Assembly (NCBI GenBank): GCA_963805085.1
Contig: CAWDTA010000004.1
Span: forward strand, 320,001 to 384,000
Source: an uncultured Veillonellaceae bacterium
Lineage (GTDB): Bacteria > Bacillota > Negativicutes > JARBTT01
Length of the DNA: 64,000 nucleotides
Direction: 5' to 3'
Shown here: positions 1 through 40,829 of the stretch, piece after piece
Layout: each line of letters starts with the position of its first letter
Numbering within the stretch: the first letter of the stretch is position 1
Notes under the pieces: generated by a model
The model's input: the letters and a program-made list of their open reading frames with translations, nothing else
Told to the model about the DNA's origin: nothing
Database searches by the model: none
Program-made: the position numbers and the translations under genes

Positions 1-605
1 ACCAGCCATTGCCAATCTGGTGATCGGAGCTTCGGTTCCACCTGCAATCATAACATCTGCAGCATCTCTTTGAATGATTTTAAAAGCATCACCAATTGCA
101 TTGGTAGAAGAAGCACATGCAGAAACTATGCATTCGACGAATCCTTTTATCCCAAATTTGATAGCAATCGTTCCGGCTGCCATATTCGGTAACATCATAG
201 GAATAAGAAATGGGCTCACACGATTTGTTCCTTTTTGCAAAAGTGTATTATGCTGAGTTTCTAATGTTTCAAGCCCCCAATACCAGAACCAATCATGATA
301 CCAGTTCTACCACTTTGTTAACGTTATCTAGAATCTATTTCGGAATTCTCAACTGCCATTTGGGATGCAGCCATCGCATATTGTGAAAACCTATCCAATC
401 TTTTTATTTCTTTTTTTTCAATAAAATCATTAGGATTAAAATTTTTTATTTCAGCTGCAACTTTAGTCGGTAAATCACTTACATCTACTCTTTCAACAAG
501 ACTAATTCCTGATTTACCAGCTTTAATTGACTGCCAAAAGGTATCTATATCTAACCCTAAAGATGTAACTGCCCCCATACCAGTAATAACAACACGTCGT
601 TTCAT
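1..605 (-). pseudogene. fabF: beta-ketoacyl-ACP synthase II, frameshifted, runs off window start
   Basis: N-terminus MKRRVVITGMGAVTSLG...RLDRFSQYAMAA. After indels near 270-335 the sequence continues in other frames as [12 protein letters not shown] / [15 protein letters not shown] / [13 protein letters not shown] / AGGTEA. Real decay or sequencing error cannot be distinguished. Confidence 0.85.
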
Positions 606-756: not shown

Positions 757-838
757 AATAAGCCTAAAAAACTACTGATATGTAATATGCTCCCCCTAAA
801 GTGGCAGTTTTTATTATTTCAACTGTCTTCTTTAAGGA
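757..838. repeat. Left half of a palindromic target element split by the composite transposon (right half 12396-12437)
   Basis: TAATATGCTCCCCCTAAAGTGGCAGTT (783-809) pairs imperfectly with AACTGTCTTCTTTAAGGA|GAGCATATCA. AATAAGCCTAAAAAACTAC (757-775) pairs with GTAGCTTTTCGGACTTATT (12419-12437). Confidence 0.75.
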
Positions 839-2438
839 CAATGTCATTAAGTTAAGCAAAATAGAATGTTTACATCGATAAAAGTAGATGTAAACATTCT
901 ATTTTTATATTTGCTAGTCATATAAAAAAACACTTGACAAATAGTCGAAAATTTGCGGCTCCGCCCTTGAAATATAAAGTTTCTAGGGAGGAACACATAT
1001 GAAACCAACTGAAGTAAAAGAAATACTTTCACACATAATAAGTACTATATCAGATGATCCATCTGATTTTTTGCAAAATCCATCAAAGGACTTTACAAGG
1101 AATCGAAAACTATCATTTGAAACAATTATTAAAATGATGATTGGCATGGGCGGAAATAGCTTATGTAAAGAAATATATGATTGGTTCAATTATGCAGAAG
1201 ATACCGCATCTGTTTCTGCCTTTGTTCAACAAAGGCAGAAAATTTCATCTAAAGCTATGGAATATATTTTTAGAGAAATGGTTAAACAATGTGACGAGCG
1301 GATTTTATTTAAAGGATATCGTCTTCTTGCTGTAGATGGGTCTGATATAAGATTACCTAAAAATAAAAATGACGATAATTCTCATATCAAAAATGATGAT
1401 AATACTAAAGGATATAATCTTCTTCATCTTGATGCTATGTATGATTTGATGCGACATAATTATGTTGACGCTTCAATACAAAGTAAAAAAGGTATGAATG
1501 AACATAAGGCTCTGGTATCAATGATTGAAAAATCTGAAGCAACTGGAAGTGTTATTGTTATAGCTGATAGAGGATACGAATCTTTTAATAATATTGCTCA
1601 TTTTCAAGAAAAGAATTGGAATTATATTATACGTTCGAAAGAATCCTACGGTATTAAATATGAAAATCCTGATAGTGATGAATTCGATAAAGAAACCACC
1701 ATCACCCTTACTCGGAGAAAAACGAAAGATACAATAGCATTGATTAAAGAAAATCCTGATAGATATCGTTGGATTCAACCTCATACAACGTTTGATTACT
1801 TACTGTCTAGAGAAAATGAGATGTATGATTTGAAATTTAGAATTGTTCGATTTAAAATTTCAGATACCACTTATGAAACGTTATTCACAAATTTACCTGC
1901 GAATGAATTTCCTGCTGAAGTTTTGAAAGAACTATATAAAATGCGATGGGGTATCGAAACTTCATTCAAAGAATTAAAATATGATGTTGGATTAGCCAGC
2001 ATTCATAGTAAAAAGCAAGATTTTGTACTTCAAGAAATTTTTTCAAAGTTAATTATGTACAATTTTGCAGCTTTAATATCTTATCAAGTAGAACATCCAA
2101 AAGATAAAAGAATCAATTTCGCTAGAGCGATACATTTTTGTTATCAGTATTTTAAAGGCAAAATTTCTGAAAGAAGTCTTTTGAAAATTGTGCAAAAATT
2201 TATGTCTCCAATACGTCCTGGCAGAGTATTTGAAAGATATCAAAATATTAAAAAGGCTGTCGGGTTTGCATATAGAATTTCTTAACAACAACTCTTCATA
2301 TCTGCATGTTGTACAGATGGCTTATAACGTCATCTGCTTTTGGTATGTTTAAATCATAAAAATGGTGAACACTTATCATAGCGTTCACCATTTTTTGATA
2401 CATTAACCTGCTCTTAATTACTTAACTTAATGACATTG
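839..2438 (+). mobile_element. IS4-family insertion sequence (element A)
   Basis: Perfect 18-bp terminal IRs CAATGTCATTAAGTTAAG (839-856) and CTTAACTTAATGACATTG (2421-2438) around a DDE transposase. Confidence 0.92.
999..2285 (+). CDS. IS4-family DDE transposase
   Basis: Motifs LLAVDGS, IADRGY and the YREK signature Y-x2-R-W-x-IE-x2-F-x2-LK (YKMRWGIETSFKELK). RBS GGGAGG. Confidence 0.93.
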   Translation: MKPTEVKEILSHIISTISDDPSDFLQNPSKDFTRNRKLSFETIIKMMIGMGGNSLCKEIYDWFNYAEDTASVSAFVQQRQKISSKAMEYIFREMVKQCDERILFKGYRLLAVDGSDIRLPKNKNDDNSHIKNDDNTKGYNLLHLDAMYDLMRHNYVDASIQSKKGMNEHKALVSMIEKSEATGSVIVIADRGYESFNNIAHFQEKNWNYIIRSKESYGIKYENPDSDEFDKETTITLTRRKTKDTIALIKENPDRYRWIQPHTTFDYLLSRENEMYDLKFRIVRFKISDTTYETLFTNLPANEFPAEVLKELYKMRWGIETSFKELKYDVGLASIHSKKQDFVLQEIFSKLIMYNFAALISYQVEHPKDKRINFARAIHFCYQYFKGKISERSLLKIVQKFMSPIRPGRVFERYQNIKKAVGFAYRIS

Positions 2439-2645
2439 ACTTCCTGGTGCACACCAAAAGCCATCATAATTACCAATATTTCTAATTTGCAACTGCTCTT
2501 CTAGAGATTCCGTAGATAACCATTGTATTTCTACATTAACACCTAAATTATCTGCACAATGCTGTAACGCATCATTTGTCGCCTTGTGTGATGGCCGTTT
2601 CAAATCGAGATCGCCAATTACTCCTATTCTTATTAAACTACTCAT
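2439..2645 (-). pseudogene. CTP-synthase-like class I glutamine amidotransferase, truncated by IS element A
   Basis: IRIGVIGD...SHKATNDAL...QWLST...YDGFWCAPGS, broken exactly at the IS right IR (2438). Confidence 0.75.
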
Positions 2646-2894
2646 TTCAATCTTCCCCCAGTTTTATTCTCAAATTTCAAGGACGGGTAGGGACGTCAGA
2701 CTGTACAAAAACGCTGTACCCAATAAATCAAAAACTAAAAAGTGGCGGATAAATATTAGTTTTAAGTTCATATTGGGGCTATTTATCCCAAAATATAGGC
2801 CATTTATGTAGTAAAGTGGGAGAATTAAAAATAAAAAAATAGTTTTCGCACACCCCGACGCCCCTTCTTAACCAAAAACCTACACTAATCTAGA

Positions 2895-3064
2895 AGACAA
2901 GGTGACGGTTCTTCCTGTCTTGTTTTTTTATACCGTACTTACCTCGTAGCACCTTTTCCGAAGACAGTACCTCCACCACTTCGCCCTCCTCAACCTGCCA
3001 TCGCTTTTTGATATTAAATTTACATATTCTCATAAAAGCTCAAAATTCCTGCCAAATTCATACA
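2895..3064. repeat. 170-bp direct repeat, copy 1 (copy 2 at 9541-9710), beginning with a REP-like palindrome
   Basis: AGACAAGGTGACGGTTCTTCCTGTCT...AAATTCATACA; 3 mismatches between copies by eye. Confidence 0.92.
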
Positions 3065-3452
3065 GAATTCTACAGGAGTTTCCTTTTTAGTATTTATACG
3101 ATAACCCCCATATATTTCATGGTTTCGCTACCTCGTAAATTCACTCATACTATAAAATCCACGCAATTTCTATAATTTTAGTCCCCAGATTGTTCCCCAA
3201 AGACTAGTATAGTTCCACTTTTTTCTTCCAGTACATGCCATTAAAAAACACAATTTTTAGCTTCTGATCCCATACGTTATATGCCTTCAGGCCTCTTTCA
3301 CTTTTCTCCCATGTCATGCTACACTGTATAATCGAACGTCAAGGTAGGCATTAATCAATAATTTACTGAATGTCTATTTTAAACGTCAATCAAAATCACC
3401 CCGAACCCCTAGAAACACTTGTTTGGGCACTATACCTTCTGCTACATTTTCA

Positions 3453-3492
3453 CTGTACAATTAATTAATATGATTATTATTTAATTGTACAG
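3453..3492. terminator. 12-bp inverted repeat downstream of the YczE-like gene
   Basis: CTGTACAATTAA ... TTAATTGTACAG. Confidence 0.4.
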
Positions 3493-3548
3493 GTTGAATT
3501 AGACTATGATTTTACTTATTTGATGATATTTCACTCACTACATGACAA

Positions 3549-4190
3549 TTAAATTTCAATAATTTGCTTTAGCGGTTCCATTTTCTTGAACCATTTGACC
3601 AACATACCGACAAACAGCGCAGCGGCTATTGTTCCGGTTCCTATGTCGGTCAATGTATGGTATAAGGTAATTGAGCCAATAACTGCAATCACAACCATTG
3701 TACAGTCCATAATAATTTTGATGCAGCTGTATTCTAAATCGCTGACTTTGGTTATAGCAACTAACATGGCATCCGGTGCAAGCATTAATAAATCAGCTTC
3801 CAAAAGTAAGTAGATTCCGAAAGCAAGACAAACAATACCTAATACACACAAGGCTACTTGCAGCCATAAGATATTGTCCGGGATACCGCTCAATAAGGAA
3901 AGTGTAAAATCTGTGAGTTTGCCATAGATAAAACCGACAACCAGCTGCAGCAACTGTAACAACTGAAAATCTTTACGTAAAATGATGATCTGTACAACCA
4001 CACAGGCAGACAACATAATCCACATAACAGTTCCTATCGAAACGCCAAGTGAATCACTGAAAACTGCTGGACAGACTCCAAGTGGCGATGTACCTAACTT
4101 TGCCTTTAAGGAAAGACTTACTCCTAAAGCAGCAAAAAATAAACCTACAAGCATAACAAAATTTTTCAATATCATTGTTTTCTTAAGCAC
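3549..4190 (-). CDS. YczE/YyaS/YitT-family membrane protein
   Basis: Duplicated hydrophobic halves with motifs ALGVSLSLKAKLGTSP and IGTGTIAAALFVG. Confidence 0.8.
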   Translation of the reverse strand: MLKKTMILKNFVMLVGLFFAALGVSLSLKAKLGTSPLGVCPAVFSDSLGVSIGTVMWIMLSACVVVQIIILRKDFQLLQLLQLVVGFIYGKLTDFTLSLLSGIPDNILWLQVALCVLGIVCLAFGIYLLLEADLLMLAPDAMLVAITKVSDLEYSCIKIIMDCTMVVIAVIGSITLYHTLTDIGTGTIAAALFVGMLVKWFKKMEPLKQIIEI

Positions 4191-4259
4191 ACACTACATC
4201 CTTTCACATACTATTTTTTCTTAGTTTCTCACTTTCTGCGCATTGACATTATTATACTA

Positions 4260-4308
4260 CCAGTCTTTGGAATAAATTTCAATTATTTAAATTTATTCCA
4301 AAGACTGG
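4260..4308. promoter_or_regulatory. Perfect 20-bp inverted repeat in a divergent promoter region
   Basis: CCAGTCTTTGGAATAAATTT-N9-AAATTTATTCCAAAGACTGG. Confidence 0.6.
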
Positions 4309-4320
4309 CGAAAACGATAG

Positions 4321-5249
4321 CTGTATATGATAATGAACGTTTGATTATTAAAATTTGTAAACTTTTTTTACGAGGAACACAAAACGTAGAAAGAAATCTC
4401 CGATATATTGAAAATCTCGAAATCACAGATTTCCCATATGATAAATTATGCAAAAAATAAAGGAATTGTCACTTTTAAATTTACAATCCTTATAAAAAAA
4501 GAATTCACGCTGGAAAAAATGTTGGCGGATAAATATCATTTAAAAGAAGTTTCCGTATATGATCTGGACTATTCCGCGGAGGAAGACGGACAAAATAGAT
4601 TTGGCGCTTATTGTGCCGAGCAACTCGAAAAATATATTTCTGACAACATGGACATTGGCATCATGAGTGGGAAATCATCTCGTCCATTGCCATGCATATT
4701 ACGAAACAGCCAAAAGAAGGACTGCATTTTATACCTCTAGTCGGCAGCTTCAAAAGCAATGGAGCCGATTATCATGCAAATATGATTGCGCGGCAGTTTG
4801 CTGAAAACGCCACCGGTTCGTATAGCATTCTGAATGTGACAGCTACTATTGGAATCTGAAGAAACATACCAATAGAGCCATCCATTCAACAAATTCTTTC
4901 TTTGGGTAACGCTTGCGATGTTTCCATCATCGGAATTGGTGAAATCAGTCTGGACTCGCAAGAATATACCAGTGAAGCCTATGCATCAGCTGATTAAAAA
5001 AAATTAAAACAGTTGGAAGTGGCATGTATTATGTGCACTTCTTATCTTGCGAAAGACGGAACGATTATGCCCACACCTCTCGATCAACGTACGATTGGCA
5101 TCCGAACAAATGAACTTCATCATGGAACGGTTATTGCCTGTTCGGGCAGTACAGCTAAAATATTAGAAATCAATGCAGCTTTACAAAGTGGTTATATTGA
5201 TGTGTTTATGACATCTCAAGAGATTGCAGAAGAACTTGTATCCCTTTAA
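4321..5249 (+). pseudogene. SorC/DeoR-type sugar-binding transcriptional regulator, fragmented
   Basis: HTH region (LIIKICKL..YEEHKT*KEISDILKISKSQISHMINYAKNKGIV) and C-terminal sugar-binding segment (RTIGI...AALQSGYIDVFMT) split by stops and frameshifts. Confidence 0.75.
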
Positions 5250-5520
5250 AGCCCTTACATCGCTCTTTTTATAACTGCTTCTGTCACGAAACGACTATTT
5301 GCAATAAATAATCTACTCAAAAGTGTTACTTTAGTGTACATGGCACCAATGGCACGTACTATAACCGACGGAACCAGTTAAAAAGATTGTATACCAGCAT
5401 ACAAATATGTAAGTAATTTACATTAACAATGCATAGAATGACTACTCATCGCAGCAAAACCGAATTCATGTACCTTTACTCTTTTATATAGGAGCTGCAA
5501 TAATCCGAAAATTATGCTGT

Positions 5521-7716
5521 TCACTTTTGCGGAATAATAGGAAGCTGCAGATAGGATGGATGCATTGCCCCAGTAAAAATTGTATTGAGAGCTTCTTTTT
5601 GATATGTCGCATCTAGAGAATCAAAGCTGGGCTGCAGATCCAGCCGGATACGCCATCCTTTTTTGATGACGGCCGTAGTAGGCCAAATTTCCACCTCGCA
5701 TTCCACAATTTCTCCGGATGTAAGCGGCTGATAGTCTTCTTTCAAATGAGTATAGTAAGGACGATAAATTGTGGTTTTTTCAATATCCTGCTTTCTATGG
5801 GAAACTTTAAGTGCCCCTTGAGCCATTGGATACACATTACCTCCAGCAAAAGCCCTACTTGTACTCGATTCAATCGCATACGGAACTTCTTTATTATTTT
5901 CGTCCATTACCCGAATGACTGCCTGAATCGCCATGTCGTAGGAAGTAGACGCCACCCATAATCCTAACTTTGCATACCCGGCAATAAGGATATCTTCCGA
6001 CATGAAATCTGTCAGAAAACTAACCCCCTTTGTCTCGCCAGCCGCATAAGTTGCACTTTCCTCACTAGTCGGAATGGATTTTCCCATATGCAAACCAGCT
6101 GTAGCTACATTCAGATAATACTTCTCATATTGAGTTCTTTGGAGCGGCCATTCCGCTTCATTCTGCCAATAATAGCTTCCCCAGCCAGTACGCACCATCA
6201 TCCGGACTGTGGGTCGATCCATAATGCCGTTGTCTACTCCTTTGAGCCAATAGTCAAAGAATGCAATATGCTCTCGCACAAACTCAGGAGCATACATCCA
6301 AAAATGGATACCTGTTTCAGACAAAATAGTGAGCTTTTTATTTTGTGAAGCACTATGAATAAAGGCTTCGCTGCTTCCCCGAGTGTGCACAGGCATTTCC
6401 AGATTCATAACATCCCAAAAAGGAACAATGATCTTGTCAGGGTCAGGACTGATGCAAATACTGCCGTTCGGACCATATACAGCAGGATCGTAAAATTGAT
6501 TAGCTTTAGCAATGTTTAGCCAGTCAATCCCCTGCCACTCGTCGCAGCAAATTTTGGCAATAAACCCAAATTCATTGTACAGCCCCCCACCGCTATAAAC
6601 ATAATCACGATACGAATCTATATCCCCGGCTATTGGCATCATGGCCTTCAAACTCGGCGGCTGAAGCGAAGCTACATTGAGTGCATTCATCGCGTAATAG
6701 GAAGCACCATATAGTCCCACATTGCCATTTGACCAAGATGTCTGCGCCGCCCACTCAATGGCATCATAGTAATCCTGCGCCTCTTGCAGGCTAAACTGCT
6801 CGAACATCCCGGGCGTTTTACCCGTTCCACGGCCATCTATCCGAATGACCACATAACCGTTGGGAACCCAATCTGCCGTATTGGCCAATTCAAAATGTTC
6901 GCTTACATGGGGCAGTGCAGGATTTTGTGGGCTACCGGAGGGTGGTAACTGCGAAGGAGGAATTTTTCCAGCAATTTGACAATGAAATTGAATAAAGGGA
7001 GTTTCTACTTTTATTCCTTCAAAATAAGCATCTTCCATTTCTTCATGTTTCAGTAAATCTTTTTGAGAGCCGATGCATCCAAACCAAAAAGCTTTTCCAT
7101 ACCCGCCAAAGCTCATAATAACGGGATATTTCCCCTTTTTCGCGGGACGGTATACGTCAGCCAGAACATACGCCCCATCCCGTGTCGGAACTTTGACATC
7201 AGTCATCTTTCGGATGCCTAAAAGAGCTCGCCGCAGATGATTTCTCGCCTCCGCACCTGAGCGAAGTCTGGTTCCAATTTCGGCAAATAGCGCTTCGGCA
7301 CTGAGACCAAAAGTTTCCTCACTTTGGTCGAAACATACGTCATAACGATACTTCCCGATACAGTTTCTAATGACATCAGTGATTATAATACTTCTCTCAA
7401 TATTAGTAGCTGAATTCAAACTCTGAACAAACCTCGCCAAATTGGTTACTTTACGGTTGGAGATTTTTTTGATATCTCCGCCTACCTCGATCACGAGATG
7501 AGCGGGAGTAAGCAAGGCAGTGCCAAGCGCGGACCCCAGCACTAGTCCACGAATCGAAAAGGTAACCGTTTCACCACAGCGATAGTGGAATGCTCCATGC
7601 TCGTCGGTCATACCTGAAAAAGTCTGTGTTTGATACTCCAGTCCTTGCACAGGAGTGGAGTCAAAGATACCCGTGCGGATTTCTGTAGCTTTTTCCATAA
7701 TCATCATATCTCCCAT
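5521..7716 (-). CDS. CocE/NonD (peptidase S15) family serine hydrolase with extra ~165-aa N-terminal domain
   Basis: VPTRDGAYVLADVYRP, IDGRGTGKTPG, WSNGNVGLYGASYYA nucleophile elbow, and a C-terminal PepX-like jelly-roll (EVEIWPT...GWRIRLD...HPSYLQLP). Confidence 0.85.
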   Translation of the reverse strand: MGDMMIMEKATEIRTGIFDSTPVQGLEYQTQTFSGMTDEHGAFHYRCGETVTFSIRGLVLGSALGTALLTPAHLVIEVGGDIKKISNRKVTNLARFVQSLNSATNIERSIIITDVIRNCIGKYRYDVCFDQSEETFGLSAEALFAEIGTRLRSGAEARNHLRRALLGIRKMTDVKVPTRDGAYVLADVYRPAKKGKYPVIMSFGGYGKAFWFGCIGSQKDLLKHEEMEDAYFEGIKVETPFIQFHCQIAGKIPPSQLPPSGSPQNPALPHVSEHFELANTADWVPNGYVVIRIDGRGTGKTPGMFEQFSLQEAQDYYDAIEWAAQTSWSNGNVGLYGASYYAMNALNVASLQPPSLKAMMPIAGDIDSYRDYVYSGGGLYNEFGFIAKICCDEWQGIDWLNIAKANQFYDPAVYGPNGSICISPDPDKIIVPFWDVMNLEMPVHTRGSSEAFIHSASQNKKLTILSETGIHFWMYAPEFVREHIAFFDYWLKGVDNGIMDRPTVRMMVRTGWGSYYWQNEAEWPLQRTQYEKYYLNVATAGLHMGKSIPTSEESATYAAGETKGVSFLTDFMSEDILIAGYAKLGLWVASTSYDMAIQAVIRVMDENNKEVPYAIESSTSRAFAGGNVYPMAQGALKVSHRKQDIEKTTIYRPYYTHLKEDYQPLTSGEIVECEVEIWPTTAVIKKGWRIRLDLQPSFDSLDATYQKEALNTIFTGAMHPSYLQLPIIPQK

Positions 7717-7764
7717 AAATTTTCGAAACTAATTTGTTTTTTCCACATTTAATTCCAATACTTC

Positions 7765-8742
7765 TTAGATTCCAATATTAGGTGGATTTCCAAGAAGTTT
7801 CTGACCTTCCTTGATAATTGATGAAATAATGTCTTTTACCGGCCTTATTTCATCAACTAAAGCAACAATCTGACCAGCCATAACAGCGCCTTCGTTTTCC
7901 ACATCGCCTTCAATCATTGCTTTTTTCAATGAACTTTCCGCCACTGTTTTTAATTTTTCCGCGGCTTCAATTTTAGGGTATTTTGCTTCAATATCTAAAA
8001 TACACTCAGAAAGTTTATTCGCCAACTGTCGACACGCTTCTCCGGTTGTGTTACCGGTAATTACCGTACTCATATCTTCGGCGTCAATCACCGCTTGCTT
8101 AACATTCGGATGAATATTAGCCTCTTTGGCCGCCATAAATATGGTTCCCATCTCAATACCTGATGCACCAAGCATAACCGCTGCTGCCAGTCCTCGACCG
8201 TCAGCAATGCCACCTGAAGCCACGAGCGGAGCCTTTATTTTATCGGCCGCCTGAGGCATAAGAACCATTGTTGACTCAAACGTGACATGACCGCCCCCTT
8301 CCCATCCTTTGACGATTACAACATCAGCACCCGCCGCGTCCGCAACCAATGCATCTGCCATATGACTGGCCTTGATCACGACTTTAATGCCATATTGATG
8401 CCAAATATCCACATATTTCTTGGTAAACTTTATTTCCATTCCTGACAACGTATCCGCATAAATCACCGGCGTCTGTGTTTCAATCGCGATTTGGGTAATT
8501 TGGTCAATCGTCCCCAGACCTGGAACCATGAAGATATTGATTGCGAAAGGTTTACTTGTTAACTTCTTAGTTTCGTAAATTTGATTCTTTACGAATTCGA
8601 GCGGTGCAAAGCCGACCCCTAACACTCCAAGCCCACCGGCCTCACTAACAGCGGCGACTAAGGACGCTGTGGCAATCCATGCCATTGGCCCCTGAATAAC
8701 TGGATATGAAATGCCTAGTGCTTTACATACTGGATTGTTCAT
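7765..8742 (-). CDS. Nitronate monooxygenase / FabK-like FMN-dependent oxidoreductase
   Basis: YPVIQGPMAW, LVAAVSEAGGLG, GWEGGGH, PLVASGGIADGRGLAAA..LGA.G..MGT.F, MAGQ. Confidence 0.87.
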   Translation of the reverse strand: MNNPVCKALGISYPVIQGPMAWIATASLVAAVSEAGGLGVLGVGFAPLEFVKNQIYETKKLTSKPFAINIFMVPGLGTIDQITQIAIETQTPVIYADTLSGMEIKFTKKYVDIWHQYGIKVVIKASHMADALVADAAGADVVIVKGWEGGGHVTFESTMVLMPQAADKIKAPLVASGGIADGRGLAAAVMLGASGIEMGTIFMAAKEANIHPNVKQAVIDAEDMSTVITGNTTGEACRQLANKLSECILDIEAKYPKIEAAEKLKTVAESSLKKAMIEGDVENEGAVMAGQIVALVDEIRPVKDIISSIIKEGQKLLGNPPNIGI

Positions 8743-8944
8743 TAAATACTCCTCCTTAAAAATAAACTTTTGAATTTTTTTGAATACTGTTATACTTAAA
8801 ATATTGAGTTTAATCCTCGATCCTCTTAAAATATTATATTTCAGCAGCTTATTTCGTACAATTAGTGATTTTTATGCCACCTAGTTACCTTTTTGACACT
8901 ATTAAATTGATTTGACTGGCGTACCGCAGAGGAGGGAATTATAT

Positions 8945-9316
8945 ATGAAAATCCTATATGATCCTGGTGATCGCCCATACGACTACTTTCATCGAGTGAT
9001 GGGCGGGAAATGGAAAATGTTTATTATCCGCGGGATTCACCAAAATGGATTTATTCGTTTTAATGAAGCGAAGCGAATATTAGGCGTATCCGGTAAATTT
9101 TTGCAACAACAGCTCCGCGACCTTGAACGAGACGGCATAATTGATCGCATTGTTTATCCTGTTATGCCCCCTCATGTTGAATATGTATTTACACCTGCCG
9201 GCAAAGAATTAGTACCAGTCCTTGACAGTATTTACGAATGGAGTACGAAAAGAATGCAGGAATTGCAGATACCTATTGCTCTCCTATCTCCCGTATACCA
9301 CAAAAAAACTGACTAA
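8945..9316 (+). CDS. HxlR-family winged-helix regulator
   Basis: GGKWK, RFNE, SGKFLQQQLRDLERDGII.R.VYPVMPPHVEY. ATG at 8945 follows GGAGG. Divergent from the NMO gene. Confidence 0.87.
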   Translation: MKILYDPGDRPYDYFHRVMGGKWKMFIIRGIHQNGFIRFNEAKRILGVSGKFLQQQLRDLERDGIIDRIVYPVMPPHVEYVFTPAGKELVPVLDSIYEWSTKRMQELQIPIALLSPVYHKKTD

Positions 9317-9409
9317 GCCTGATCTTCCGGCCGTCCTTCAAACAAATTCTATGCTAAATATAAATTGGTCATAATCAGCAGCATCGATCTAAATCGTAAG
9401 CGTCAAAAA

Positions 9410-9540
9410 GGCCGTTACCTTGACAACACCTGTTATAACTGGCACCCAGTCCTGGCCGTCATAGGGCTTGGTCAGATTTTTATCATTTTGCAGCCATTTG
9501 TGCAACGTACCTAGGCCAATGCCGTTTTCTCAACGCCACG
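9410..9540 (-). pseudogene. Possible IS66 TnpA (OrfA) remnant
   Basis: Minus strand reads ENGIGLGTLHKWLQ...QDWVPV, resembling the IS66 TnpA HTH and W-x-P-V motif. Confidence 0.35.
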
Positions 9541-9710
9541 AGACAAGGTGACGGTTCTTTCTGTCTTGTTTTTTTATACCGCACTTACCTCGTAGCACCT
9601 TTTCCGAAGACAGTACCTCCACCACTTCGCCCTCCTCAACCTGCCATCGCTTTTTGATATTAAATTTACATATTCTCATAAAAGCTCAAAACTCCTGCCA
9701 AATTCATACA
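9541..9710. repeat. 170-bp direct repeat, copy 2
   Basis: Near-identical to 2895-3064. Confidence 0.92.
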
Positions 9711-9890
9711 TTTTCCCAAAAAGTCATGTGTTTATATGGAACGTTTCAAAATACTGATTTACGACATTTTGGAACTATAAAATTATAAGTATTAAAATGT
9801 ATACATTTTAGTACTTATAATATAAATATTTAGCCCTCTGATTTAGAGGGCTTGAGTAATTTCACTATTTCAAATCTACTTTACTTTTTA

Positions 9891-10178
9891 TTAGGACACC
9901 TCTTCATTTGAAAAAGAAAAGACTTTTTTTGTTTCATTTTTTCCAGTGAATTCATTTTGTGCTATATCAGTTGCTTTTCTAATCTCAGCAATCTGTTTAT
10001 CAGTGTATTCATAACTTGATTTATTCGACAATTTACCAATCAAATTAATCTGGTTTAAAACCGCTGAAACTCTGCGTACTGAAATTCTTACAAAATCTCC
10101 TGCCTTATCTTTTACTTTTGGCGTTGCTGTCTCGTCGCCAAGGATCTCTCCATTATTTAAATTTGTTTCATCACTCAT
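9891..10178 (-). CDS. Small conserved hypothetical protein of a type seen in mobile/defence regions
   Basis: Motif FVRIS.RRV..VL..I.LIGKLSNKSSYEYT...I; RBS AAGGAG. Confidence 0.6.
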   Translation of the reverse strand: MSDETNLNNGEILGDETATPKVKDKAGDFVRISVRRVSAVLNQINLIGKLSNKSSYEYTDKQIAEIRKATDIAQNEFTGKNETKKVFSFSNEEVS

Positions 10179-10348
10179 AATTAAAAACTCCTTATCTTAT
10201 TATACATTTTAAAATTCTTTTATTTACTACCTAGAATGGTATTTGTGTCTACTAAGTTACCTTTAATACCTCAATAGCACTCTTATTACTTGGCTTCATA
10301 CAAATTGCAGGTATGAAAAACATATAATACGTATGTTTATATATTTAT

Positions 10349-10687
10349 TCATCTAGTTTGAATACCTCGAATTCTACTACCATCGTTTTTATTTATTTCA
10401 TAAGAGATCCCATTCCAATTTCCAACAACAATTTCATCAGACAAATCATCAAAATTTGTATATGGACTATCCTCATAGATTAAATCAGGTTCTTGAATTC
10501 TCCAGCGAATATCCTTATCTTTGATGTTTACCGCATAGACGTTCTGGTTATTTATTTCCCCTTTAGGAACAGTAATTAAAACCAAAACCAATTCTTCATA
10601 TAATTTAATACTTTTAATAGAATGTGAGAAATTGATAGAGTCCCCAGCTATAAATAACTGGTTATTAACATAATGTATATCCATCAT
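10349..10687 (-). CDS. Hypothetical beta-rich protein, possibly an orphan polymorphic-toxin immunity protein
   Basis: Acidic, 112 aa, with NVYAVN...IRWRIQ...PY...NWNG..YEIN..DG pattern. Confidence 0.45.
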   Translation of the reverse strand: MMDIHYVNNQLFIAGDSINFSHSIKSIKLYEELVLVLITVPKGEINNQNVYAVNIKDKDIRWRIQEPDLIYEDSPYTNFDDLSDEIVVGNWNGISYEINKNDGSRIRGIQTR

Positions 10688-10782
10688 TTGTCACCTAACT
10701 TCCTTGTATTTTGCAAGCGGCAGGATCATCGAGGCGTTCTAATAATTCATATCCGGTTAGCAAAAAAGGCTAACATTTCTGC

Positions 10783-12395
10783 CAATGTCATTAAGTTAAA
10801 ACATAGAAGATCAATCCCCAAAAGAATCGAGTACAAAAAAGCGTACCCGGTTCTTTTTTTGTAGAAAAAGGTTGACAAACAGACGAAAATATGTGATGAA
10901 GCTCCTTGAATGAATACATTTTGGGAGGTTTCGCTTATGAATTTCTCTGAAAGCGTGAAACAAGTATTGTTGGGAAAAATACAGGAGATGGCAACTTGTC
11001 CTGGATTGTTTGTACGCAATCCAGACAGTGATTTTACAAGAAAGCGAAAGCTTGATTTTGAAACAACAATTCGGTGTCTGATTGCCATGGAAAGCGGTAG
11101 CCTGAAGAAAGAACTGCTGGAGCTTTTCCATTACAATCTTGACACCGCGACGGCATCGGCTTTTAATCAGCAACGTGAAAAGATACTCCCGGAAGCATTG
11201 GAATTTCTCTTCCGAGAATTCAGCAAAGCCTTTGCACAATATCAAACATACCGTGGGTATCGATTACTTGCCTGTGATGGCACTGCCTTGAACATAGCTC
11301 AAAATCCAAGTGATCAGGAAACTTATTTTCAGTCAATTCCCGGAGATAAAGGGTTTAATCAACTCCATCTAAATTCCCCCCTATACGATTTATGTAGCAG
11401 ACGGTATGTGGATGCTGTAATCCAACCTGGAAGAAAAAAGAATGAGTGCCGCGCCATGACAGACATGATCGACCAGTGCGTTTCCGGACACAAGACAATA
11501 TTTATTGCAGATCGCGGCTATGAAGCTTACAACACCTTTGCTCACGCAGAACAACGAGATATGTATTATCTTATACGTGTAAGGGAATCTGGACATAGTA
11601 TGGTAACTAGCTTTGGTTTGCCGCTAACGGACTCATTCGATACACATGTGCATCTTACACTGACCCATAAACAGTCAGCTCTGGCAAGAGCATGTCCCGG
11701 TTATAAATTTCTTCCATCAAACAGTACATTCGATTATTTGGATCAAAGTGATTTCTATCCTATCACTTTACGCATTGTACGTTTTCTAGTCACGGAAGAT
11801 ACCTATGAATGCGTTATTACCAATCTGCCCAAAGATACGTTTCCACCGGATGAACTCAAGAAACTCTACGCAATGCGTTGGGGAATCGAAACGTCCTTCC
11901 GGGAATTGAAATATGCAATTGGTCTCAGTTGTTTCCATGCCAAAAAGGTGGAGTATATCAAGCAGGAAATCTTTGCCCGTCTGCTTCTTTATAATTTCTG
12001 TGAGATCATCACGACCCATGTGGTGATCCAGCAAAAAGATACGAAGCACATATACCAAGTGAACTATACTCTGGCAATCCACTTATGTCGGCATTTTCTG
12101 CGATTTCCTACGGATATATCTCCACCCGATGTTGAGATGCTGATACAGAAAAATCTTCTTCCTGTCAGACCCGGACGCAGTGACCCTCGCAAAGTCAAGC
12201 CCAAGGCAGCAGTGAGTTTTCTATATCGTGTAGCATAATCTCCTATTTACTATATCCCTTTTATTGGCAGATAGCAATCTGCCTTTTTGTGGCGCTCAAA
12301 AATAGACAAAAAAGACAGGGAGACCATTATTTCTCAATCTCGCTGTCTTTTCCGTTGTTTCTTTGTCGTTTTGTTTTCTTAACTTAATGACATTG
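10783..12395 (+). mobile_element. IS4-family insertion sequence (element B)
   Basis: 17-bp terminal IRs CAATGTCATTAAGTTAA (10783-10799) and TTAACTTAATGACATTG (12379-12395), the same IR as element A. Confidence 0.92.
10937..12238 (+). CDS. IS4-family DDE transposase
   Basis: LLACDGT, IADRGY, YAMRWGIETSFRELK. Start at 10937 after GGGAGG. Homologous to 999-2285 but clearly divergent and more GC-rich. Confidence 0.93.
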   Translation: MNFSESVKQVLLGKIQEMATCPGLFVRNPDSDFTRKRKLDFETTIRCLIAMESGSLKKELLELFHYNLDTATASAFNQQREKILPEALEFLFREFSKAFAQYQTYRGYRLLACDGTALNIAQNPSDQETYFQSIPGDKGFNQLHLNSPLYDLCSRRYVDAVIQPGRKKNECRAMTDMIDQCVSGHKTIFIADRGYEAYNTFAHAEQRDMYYLIRVRESGHSMVTSFGLPLTDSFDTHVHLTLTHKQSALARACPGYKFLPSNSTFDYLDQSDFYPITLRIVRFLVTEDTYECVITNLPKDTFPPDELKKLYAMRWGIETSFRELKYAIGLSCFHAKKVEYIKQEIFARLLLYNFCEIITTHVVIQQKDTKHIYQVNYTLAIHLCRHFLRFPTDISPPDVEMLIQKNLLPVRPGRSDPRKVKPKAAVSFLYRVA

Positions 12396-12461
12396 TCTTT
12401 AAGGAGAGCATATCAATGGTAGCTTTTCGGACTTATTCTAATCTTTTTCTTTCTTTATCTA

Positions 12462-38072: not shown

Positions 38073-40829
38073 CTAAGACTGTTTTATAATTTGTAAAATA
38101 AAACAAATCTCATCAATATTAATGTCAATCGAATATATTTTTTCAATAGTAGATAGCATCTGCTTTATTTTATCAATATCTACAATATATTTTTGCAACA
38201 TATCTTTTTTATTTTTACACTCACGGGTTTTTTTACCATCCAACAAAGCATCAATCGCACAAGTTACATGAAAAATCAATCCTACCATGGTATCTTTATC
38301 TAAAAAAACATGCAAATCATCTTCCAAACTTTTCATAAATAAATCAAAATATTGTTTAAATTCATCCACATCAATGTGTCTTAATTTTTCTTTAATTGCA
38401 TCAAAGACTTGATTTTTAATTTTAATCATGTCCACTGTACTAACCTCTGTAATAACTTGTGCATTTTTCACTAAATTCCGAATTTTATCATAACGATTTA
38501 ACATAATCAAATCCGATAACGAAATAAATGGAATCCCATAAAAATGTGGGTTTATTGTGCCTACAATTGCAACAATTGTACGATCATTTGCAACTTTTTG
38601 TAATCTCTTTTCTAGCTCATGAGGATCACTAATGGACATAGGTAAAATTTCTACATGATCATCTTTAAAATCCACATTATCTTCAATTAAGTTTTTAATT
38701 TTCACAGCACTACCTTCGCCAGTCACACAAAGGGTAATAATCACAAATTCACTATTTATTTTAAAATCCTTAAATAATTCTGTACCATAACTTAATGACA
38801 TTGGAACTTTATCACGAATTGATTGACATATAATATCAATGTTATTTTCTACCTCTACTTGCCGTGCAACCTCTAATGCCATAACAGTAGTAACTAAATC
38901 AATGACTCGCAAATCAATTTTTAATTCTTCACTAATTAACTCACCAAAGGTTCCAAGAGATCCCATATCAACAAGTAAAATCACACTGCTAGGATTATTA
39001 ACTTTTATTAATTGTTTAAGTTCCTCATAACAAACTTTTGAGCTTTTATCTAGATTCATATCATAAGCTAGCACAGACTGAATTCCCAACAAGCAATTAA
39101 CCACTTCAGCCATTGAACTTGCTGTACTTCTACCATGCATAGCAATAACTAACAATGGATGATTTTTCTGGTATTCGCCCTCTATTTTATCAATACTTAA
39201 GAACATTGCAATAAAGGCAACTTCCTCGACAGGTATTTTCACATCATATTCGTGCTCTAACTTACGACAATAATCATGTACAACTTTAAATTCTTCCGGA
39301 TACTTTTCTAGAATTTCTCCAAATTTATGGTTAATGATTGGTTTTCCAATTCGCATCCTTTCTAAGCTAGCCTGCATATGTAAACACAAGCTATGGAAAA
39401 CTTTCACAGGAAAAACTTTATGCAATTCTTTTCCAGCATAACCTAACAAACCATCAACAAATTTAATCGTATTTTCATTTACAATTTTAGAAATTTCAAT
39501 TGTATAGTCTTCAAAATTTCTGATATATTTGTTAAAATAACCTTCAATTTCCGTAACCATTATAAGTCGAATATCTTCTTCACTATATTGACGTCTATGC
39601 AACTCTTCCAATTTTTTTTCAATCTGCCCATAAAAGTTATTTTTATATTTATCTATATGTTTTTCATTAAAAGATCCTAATTCTTTATCAGTAAAAGAAA
39701 ACAATTGCTTATCCTGAAGGATTTCTTCTATCTTTTCAGAATGATCTTTCAGGTACAACATTCCTTGTTTAACATAATCAGGGAGGTGATGTAATTCAAT
39801 TGTAACTTTTTTTTGCATCTCACTAATACAATCTAGAAAGGCATTTGCACAGGTTAATTTAATATCACTTTTTAATTGGCCTACATTTCCTATACACGGA
39901 TATAATAATAAGCTTTTTATCACTTCATCATTTACAATGATTCGCCTATTTACCTGTCGCGACTCTTTCTGAAAAAAATCACTTATTAACAAAAATCGTT
40001 CTTTCAAAGTCCGCTCTTTCAATGATGAAATATAAATCGTCATAGGAATTCTGCGTTTAAATGTTTGCAATAAAGACGTATCTACTTGTTCTGTAGTCGC
40101 ACACAACAACAGTACGTTGACTTTCTTTTTTACTGTATCTCCCAACGGACAAAATTCACCTTTATCTATTAAATAAAATAAAAGTTCTTGCCCCTCGGCT
40201 GGCAAACGATGAATTTCATCTAAAAATAGTACTCCTCCATCAGCTTTTTCAACTATACCGCGATGTTCTCTATCCGCACCAGTATATGCACCTTTTTTAT
40301 ATCCAAATAATTGTCCTATGAGTAATTGTGGATTATTTGAATAATCTGCACAATTAAATTCAATAAACGGAGAATTCAAAGGCATCACACCATTTTCAAT
40401 AGCAAATTTATGCATTAAGCTAGCAAACATGGTTTTTCCAACACCTGTCGGTCCTAAAATTAAAGTGTGAATTCCATTAGGGGGATAAAGCACAGCAGCC
40501 TTTGCCTGACGAATTGGCTTTTTTAAACTTTCACTACTCCCAATCAATGTAGAAAAACTAGTCTCATTACCAGTCATATATATTGTTTTTTCTACTTTCC
40601 CAGAAACACCATATTTAACTGGACGACCATCCATTTTTATAAGTCGCCCTTTTCGATAGAGCTTATTTAGTATAGCACTCACATTACTCCGAAGTACTCC
40701 TATTTGCTCAGCAATCTCCTTAGTTGTATGCCCTATTATCACTTGTTCGTTTTTATTTTTTGCACTCTCGGCCACTAGAAATCCAAATACCTTTTCTTCT
40801 AAATTTTGCTCCCCCATAAAATCCTCCAT
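38073..40829 (-). CDS. LevR-type sigma54 activator with HTH, AAA+, PRD, EIIA-Man and EIIB-Gat-like domains
   Basis: GPTGVGKT, FNCADY, GAYTGA, LFLDEIHRLP, PRD (LHMQ), AMHG, CVTGEG, second PRD (FHV). Confidence 0.92.
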   Translation of the reverse strand: MEDFMGEQNLEEKVFGFLVAESAKNKNEQVIIGHTTKEIAEQIGVLRSNVSAILNKLYRKGRLIKMDGRPVKYGVSGKVEKTIYMTGNETSFSTLIGSSESLKKPIRQAKAAVLYPPNGIHTLILGPTGVGKTMFASLMHKFAIENGVMPLNSPFIEFNCADYSNNPQLLIGQLFGYKKGAYTGADREHRGIVEKADGGVLFLDEIHRLPAEGQELLFYLIDKGEFCPLGDTVKKKVNVLLLCATTEQVDTSLLQTFKRRIPMTIYISSLKERTLKERFLLISDFFQKESRQVNRRIIVNDEVIKSLLLYPCIGNVGQLKSDIKLTCANAFLDCISEMQKKVTIELHHLPDYVKQGMLYLKDHSEKIEEILQDKQLFSFTDKELGSFNEKHIDKYKNNFYGQIEKKLEELHRRQYSEEDIRLIMVTEIEGYFNKYIRNFEDYTIEISKIVNENTIKFVDGLLGYAGKELHKVFPVKVFHSLCLHMQASLERMRIGKPIINHKFGEILEKYPEEFKVVHDYCRKLEHEYDVKIPVEEVAFIAMFLSIDKIEGEYQKNHPLLVIAMHGRSTASSMAEVVNCLLGIQSVLAYDMNLDKSSKVCYEELKQLIKVNNPSSVILLVDMGSLGTFGELISEELKIDLRVIDLVTTVMALEVARQVEVENNIDIICQSIRDKVPMSLSYGTELFKDFKINSEFVIITLCVTGEGSAVKIKNLIEDNVDFKDDHVEILPMSISDPHELEKRLQKVANDRTIVAIVGTINPHFYGIPFISLSDLIMLNRYDKIRNLVKNAQVITEVSTVDMIKIKNQVFDAIKEKLRHIDVDEFKQYFDLFMKSLEDDLHVFLDKDTMVGLIFHVTCAIDALLDGKKTRECKNKKDMLQKYIVDIDKIKQMLSTIEKIYSIDINIDEICFILQIIKQS

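Follow-up and report, generated by a model that had tools for sequence, protein, structure and literature searches.

A probable mixed composite transposon bounded by two divergent IS4-family elements in an uncultured Veillonellaceae bacterium

Composite transposons bounded by two different insertion sequences (IS) are a known, though rarely reported, kind. In Tn1213 (ISPa12-blaPER-1-truncated gst-ISPa13), two different IS4-family elements enclose a gene remnant and an 8-bp duplication flanks the whole unit (excerpts of PMC3934969 and PMC9330008). We analyzed a 64-kb stretch of DNA from an uncultured Veillonellaceae bacterium (GenBank assembly GCA_963805085.1, contig CAWDTA010000004.1, positions 320,001 to 384,000; hereafter the window, numbered from its first base) in which two different IS4-family elements, A and B, and the DNA between them lie within a single 10-bp duplication. 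An earlier note on this DNA had presented the mixed pair as something outside known biology; Tn1213, with both its elements in the IS4 family, was, however, already in print. Compared by description rather than by sequence, Tn1213 and this block both combine an outer duplication with matching ends and a pair of different IS from a single subgroup. ISPa12 and ISPa13 appear in the subgroup ISH8 supplement, headed by ISH8C (PMC2266710, partial text), whereas A and B belong to subgroup IS4, and they are termed close relatives (PMC3934969, excerpt), whereas A and B encode transposases that are 41% identical and flank 8.3 kb of metabolic cargo within a 10-bp duplication. Tn1213 is widespread, while the present element is a single instance known from sequence alone. 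The ISPa12 and ISPa13 transposases are about 63% identical, and transposition of Tn1213 was reportedly tested by Mancini in 2018, with a positive result at very low frequency. Novel aspects are the subgroup, the extent to which the pair has diverged, and one end common to transposases down to 23% identity.

The lacticin 481 composite, which we take to be Tn5721 and which recurs in our survey as locus L001, has two direct copies of IS1675, a subgroup IS4 element of ~1.6 kb with the identical 17-bp ends, around ~8 kb of cargo. Both IS1675 copies encode the same protein, unlike A and B; its outer flanks have 2 mismatches in 10 positions, and a single palindromic target is recognizable in all four flanks. 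Tn5/IS50 and Tn10/IS10 are IS4-family, cut-and-paste composites in which one transposase serves two outer ends, as we propose here, and Tn5 transposase is the closest solved fold to the modeled transposase of B. However, their flanking copies are nearly identical, in contrast to the 41% protein identity found here, and they belong to other subgroups with other end sequences. In IS231/MIC231 and other non-autonomous elements that share inverted repeats, an IS4-family transposase serves related repeats in trans (PMC6199540, excerpt), but both ends come from one non-autonomous cassette without a second autonomous IS, unlike here. Pairs of IS26, IS1006, and IS1008 combine different IS with identical terminal repeats and have been tested for cross-reaction; their chemistry is cointegrate formation rather than cut-and-paste, and reaction of mixed pairs called for one and the same transposase and for DNA identity at the end that reacted (PMC7885326, excerpt). 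An IS26-type pseudo-compound transposon was ruled out for the present block, as both elements are of the IS4 family and no IS6 model was among the matches. Our literature search found no mixed composite in the IS1675-like group, although it reached few subscription journals and its generic queries overlooked Tn1213 too.

The block is laid out as follows (IRL and IRR, left and right terminal inverted repeats; ORF, open reading frame; GATase, glutamine amidotransferase).

829-838, no strand: target duplication, left copy, 10 bp (exact-match search)
839-2438, plus strand: IS element A, IS4 family, subgroup IS4 (IS1675-like), 1600 bp, 30.1% GC
839-856, plus strand: IRL of A, the outer left end, identical to the IRR of B at 21/22 nucleotides
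999-2285, plus strand: tnpA, 428 aa, with DDE residues (D113, D190, E320) and YREK motif intact
2421-2438, minus strand: IRR of A, the inner end, adjoining the cut GATase gene
2439-2645, minus strand: 5' 69 codons of a CTP-synthase C-terminal-related GATase gene (PRK06186-like), cut by the inner end of A
10783-12395, plus strand: IS element B, subgroup and orientation as A, 1613 bp, 41.2% GC
10783-10799, plus strand: IRL of B, the inner end, with the base A at position 18
10937-12238, plus strand: tnpB, 433 aa from the conserved Met (the ORF opens at 10910), with DDE and YREK intact and an extra proline, P148, in a core strand
12378-12395, minus strand: IRR of B, the outer right end
12396-12405, no strand: target duplication, right copy, 10 bp (exact-match search)

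The 10-mer TCTTTAAGGA occurs exactly twice in the 64-kb window, at the two positions abutting the outer ends. Passenger DNA is bracketed by two IS elements, as in a composite transposon, and the duplication encloses the whole unit at 10/10 positions. Compared in register, the outer flanks have 0 mismatches, the flanks of A 5, those of B 6, and the inner (reciprocal) pair 6. Neither IS has a duplication of its own, just as the earlier note had claimed; relatives make duplications of 8-12 bp, most often 10 bp (among the matches listed in the survey below). The chance that two window positions carry an equal 10-mer is 3.2e-6, or 2.2e-4 over 4 pairings and lengths of 8-13, and matches to the 10-mer with ≤1 mismatch are at chance level (8 vs 7.7 expected). 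The insertion site is intergenic, lying 57 bp after the stop codon of an MCP gene and upstream of fabF, which is frameshifted. The inner end of A does cut a GATase gene: the remnant, which stops after codon 69 of ~245, matches residues 1-69 of a 245-aa CTP-synthase-C-terminal-like homologue (97% identical), and the missing part, sought with 4 full-length homologues, is absent from the window. The observation of a mixed-IS block with an outer duplication is confirmed, and the feature is real.

One 17-bp inverted repeat, CAATGTCATTAAGTTAA, is found exactly at all four ends (839-855, plus; 2422-2438, minus; 10783-10799, plus; 12379-12395, minus). Allowing ≤3 mismatches, it has 5 matches in the window vs a shuffle mean of 0.79, and 5 were reached in 0/100 shuffles. 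The fifth, end-like match (38787-38803, minus strand, 1 mismatch) lies within the ORF of a 918-aa regulator and was judged a chance occurrence. The outer ends, IRL(A) and IRR(B), share an exact match of 18 bp, which no pairing of the four ends exceeds, and agree at 21/22 positions overall; the two ends of A agree at 20/22 and those of B at 19/22. Between these common ends, the divergence in transposase and GC content reported by the earlier note is borne out: third-position GC is 0.19 in A and 0.40 in B, the elements share only short matches at the DNA level, and TnpA and TnpB, the only two such transposases encoded in the window, are 41% identical (177/434, alignment). Calling the two copies unrelated overstated this, as A and B are divergent members of one subgroup.

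Both transposases passed the NCBIfam IS4 model NF033592 (A 195.6 bits, B 171.9 bits, cutoff 115). Each is a single ORF whose catalytic residues (D114, D192, and E318 in B) fit the IS4-family spacing D(60-110)D(100-150)E, and each carries a Y(2)R(3)E(6)K motif, starting at residue 313 in A and 311 in B. Subgroup IS4 is described by ends in -AATR..., lengths of 1400-1650 bp, and duplications of 10-13 bp (PMC2266710, partial text); the ends here start CAATG and the elements measure 1600 and 1613 bp. The named plasmid matches shown were IS1675, ISPa1635, IS4, and ISVvu2, all in the subgroup IS4 supplement (PMC2266710, partial text). IS1675 is the nearest named element, with the identical 17-bp end and 39% identity to TnpA and 41% to TnpB. 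On similarity, not on a tree, A and B are placed in subgroup IS4 of the IS4 family. A perfect 19-bp inverted repeat was seen at 858-905, just within the left end of A, with more hairpins near the right end of A and inside both ends of B.

The predicted structure of TnpB (mean pLDDT 86.5) retrieved Tn5 transposase as all of its top five fold-search matches (E 6e-11 to 5e-9); only the fold search gave relatives, as a sequence search of PDB returned none, and TnpB had no match in phages. The P148 insertion is missing in 80/80 aligned TnpB homologues and sits within model strand 140-151. TnpB may be inactive owing to this insertion, which could also have arisen after the move or reflect an error in the sequence. 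For TnpB, the close relatives with names are from Sporomusaceae and Megasphaera (80-91%); the few named relatives of TnpA are from Roseburia and Anaerocolumna (57-58%), and a named relative of the cut GATase gene is from Pelosinus. These relatives suggest that B is indigenous to a Sporomusaceae-like host and that A came from a lower-GC donor.

An end-sequence scan yielded at least 129 stretches (at least 127 loci), with long flanks for 80; removal of 3 duplicate loci left 124 for analysis, and all survey counts given here are among the matches listed. No Sporomusaceae genome was among them, so other A or B copies of the host fall outside what the survey covered. Two-ended elements numbered 49 (7 full-length, 42 short), and duplications were perfect in 5/7 full-length and 16/42 short elements, with lengths of 10 bp (13), 9 bp (5), 12 bp (2), and 8 bp (1). 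Non-coding elements of 70-350 bp with the same ends were many (L003-L129), often in stem-loop targets, and the records that contain them are labeled as Bacteroidota, Bacillota, Pseudomonadota, Chloroflexota, and one archaeal metagenome-assembled genome. Because such short elements bear fresh duplications, the ends function in trans. Position 18, which lay outside the search word, was G in 146/167 related ends, and of the four ends in the window only the inner end of B differs. Transposases of 13 full-length elements with the same end, a set partly chosen by the end itself and including partial ORFs for L001 and L059, were 24-44% identical to TnpA and 23-53% to TnpB. In a check unselected for ends, both ends matched with ≤2 mismatches in 8/8 plasmid records picked by protein similarity.

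Subgroup IS4 can also move long units. A 6457-bp single element of Butyrivibrio proteoclasticus pCY360 (L134:15047-21503) has a perfect 10-bp duplication, no inner ends, and ~4.9 kb of passenger genes between its IRL and its transposase, a modular form that the available part of a 2008 review reports for subgroup IS231 only (PMC2266710). A 9264-bp composite (L130) has copies that are 98% identical and a 10-bp duplication, which is less telling because its target is palindromic. At L074:2402-4078 and L014:10001-10248 the flanks are mutually inverted with no direct duplication, reflecting opposite-insertion recombination or an assembly effect. Target preference over the surveyed ends was weak (≤0.19 bit per position), and only 3/8209 cross-locus flank pairs were identical, of which one probably represents a single element's own two ends. 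The earlier note had named a fixed target as one finding that would overturn its interpretation. That reading was rejected: none of 182 related flanks came within 2 mismatches of the window 10-mer, and under a matrix of 170 flanks two independent targets agree with probability 3.7e-6.

The feature is probably a mixed composite transposon, for which a Tn5-like transposase joined IRL(A) to IRR(B) and the block moved by cut-and-paste. At a donor locus, ordinary transposition would have carried A into the GATase gene and B, in matching orientation, to a site 8.3 kb off. A single transposase species would then have bound IRL(A) and IRR(B) and paired them in a Tn5-like complex, and the 11,567-bp block would have been excised and inserted between the MCP gene and the fabF pseudogene, leaving the 10-bp duplication. 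The outer halves of the duplications made by A and B themselves, together with the 3' part of the GATase gene, would have stayed at the donor, which would explain why the inner duplications and half the gene are missing here. One pairing event would thereby account for the outer duplication, both absent inner duplications, and the lost gene half. Tn5 transposase binds approximately the first 19 bp of its end, brings two ends together, and tolerates outside and inside ends that are unlike (PMC2632911, excerpt), and because the outer ends of the block are identical over 18 bp, their pairing by one enzyme is plausible. In line with this, the outer ends agree with each other slightly more closely than the two ends of A or of B do. 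The duplication length fits as well, as 10 bp is commonest in relatives (13/21) and lies in the subgroup range of 10-13 bp (PMC2266710, partial text). TnpA is weakly favored over TnpB as the mover, since the proline insertion of TnpB is absent from its homologues.

Several observations weigh against this explanation. Neither a second copy of the block nor a donor locus was found, and the cargo had no match in plasmids. A search for the empty site proposed in the earlier note gave 0 exact junction matches in GTDB representatives, which is uninformative with one genome per species. Its proposed scan for other mixed pairs found none among 180 end pairs (23 with perfect duplication), with almost no power as only 2 loci held two full elements, and there were none in the 8 plasmid records. 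IS26, IS1006, and IS1008 share 14-bp ends and have transposases that are 84-93% identical, yet gave no joint targeted reaction (PMC7885326, excerpt); shared ends alone are thus no guarantee of cooperation, although the mechanism there is different. Loss of a solo duplication is common anyway, with ≥3 flank mismatches in 13/49 related elements. At L034, short elements inserted in copies of one repeat at the same 12-bp target produce outer duplications over 6-14 kb, although their inner flanks carry the target sequence too, the same or nearly so; such false outer duplications call for caution in automated searches for mixed composites. Finally, multi-step routes give the same final sequence without cross-recognition, and taken together they retain a minor but appreciable probability. 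The hybrid transposon of the earlier note stands as the best explanation, while the cross-recognition it invoked is better worded as a proposal, given two multi-step routes to an identical sequence. We rank the multi-step routes below one-step transposition because each requires a rare extra step.

The better of these routes, which we consider improbable, has a solo A making the duplication while direct B copies around the cargo elsewhere recombined out a cargo-plus-B circle, which integrated via the 18-21 bp shared by the IRRs. A mirror version starts with a solo B, and neither version involves movement of the hybrid as a whole. In favor of this route, the IRRs of A and B form direct repeats (20/21 identical), flank exchange is frequent in the family (13/49 without duplication), and IS1675-type copies in L001 and L130/L131 show mismatched or exchanged flanks. 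However, this route takes more steps and depends on recombination across just 18 exact bases, which is generally inefficient, and for Tn5-like enzymes such a route is not known to us. End-targeted integration in the IS26 family, moreover, needed extended identity and the same transposase (PMC7885326, excerpt).

Next in rank, and likewise unlikely, is a conventional B-cargo-B composite that made the duplication. A would then have inserted, in register, at the left copy of this 10-mer, and a deletion starting at the inner end of A would have taken out the left B along with the 3' portion of the GATase gene, either as an adjacent deletion or through recombination with another A located in that gene. 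Every step is of a known type and the cut gene is explained too; conventional composites occur in the subgroup (L001, L130), and IS1675-type members have strong target arms. Exact re-use of one site would be required, however, whereas the target preference measured above is weak, the two flanks of A differ at 5/10 positions, and no IRR-to-IRL tandem of <60 bp occurred among the matches listed (at least 129 loci).

Far less probable is a pair of independent insertions, A at one copy and B at another copy of a preferred 10-mer, followed by deletions that removed both inner copies. Fixed-target behavior does exist in the family, as in the repeated 12-mer of L034 and the palindromic arms of IS1675-type members, but this account needs two deletions as well, and both the window counts of the 10-mer and the 0/182 flanks with their match probability of 3.7e-6 argue against it. 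An assembly artefact, in which contigs were joined through the shared end sequence, is just as improbable: multi-copy IS commonly fragment assemblies, and frameshifts affect several genes nearby, but the longest end-to-end exact identity of 18 bp is shorter than usual assembly word sizes, and an in-register duplication is not expected from a mis-join. Reciprocal exchange between two independent insertions was ruled out, as the inner flanks differ at 6/10 positions and the GATase gene does not continue left of B.

The cargo and its repeats comprise the following features.

2895-3064, no strand: 170-bp direct repeat, copy 1 (98% identical to copy 2)
3549-4190, minus strand: YczE/DUF6198-like membrane protein
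4408-5249, plus strand: DeoR/SorC-type regulator, frameshifted and in pieces
5521-7716, minus strand: CocE/NonD family hydrolase
7765-8742, minus strand: nitronate monooxygenase / FabK-like flavoprotein
8912-9316, plus strand: HxlR-type regulator
9541-9710, no strand: 170-bp direct repeat, copy 2
9891-10178, minus strand: 95-aa ORF without a family match
10349-10687, minus strand: 112-aa protein, DUF7957-like by language-model features (a lead only)

The 8.3 kb between A and B encodes ordinary metabolism and no recognized resistance or virulence gene, so its practical importance is low. The 170-bp direct repeats flank 6.5 kb of higher-GC cargo and had no match in plasmids, phages, or Rfam; the pair may mark an earlier, nested acquisition. 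An Rfam scan gave a single weak match, under cutoff. Beside repeat copy 2 is a short frame (9389-9545, minus strand) that may resemble the tail of a small helix-turn-helix transposase ORF. A 24-codon open stretch (10697-10769, minus strand), which stops just ahead of the DUF7957-like gene, may be a 3' gene remnant left where the inner end of B cut in. The frameshifts in fabF (window 1-605) and in the DeoR-type regulator reflect local decay or sequence error.

Composite-transposon finders usually seek two near-identical IS copies. Units like A-cargo-B would consequently be missed, and gene movement driven by IS would be undercounted. The A/B pair, with 41% identical enzymes and identical 18-bp ends, is a clean natural substrate for work on how far the specificities of transposase and end may diverge from one another. 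More tentatively, the IS1675-like clade might combine a near-invariant end of 17-18 bp with transposases diverged to 23-27% across phyla, so that autonomous elements, miniature inverted-repeat transposable elements, and cargo elements would share one pool of ends and any transposase could pair any two of them; we regard this as possible but doubtful. If it held, a newly arrived low-GC element such as A could mobilize host DNA at once with an end of the resident, possibly crippled B, and the IS1675-like clade would routinely give rise to mixed composites.

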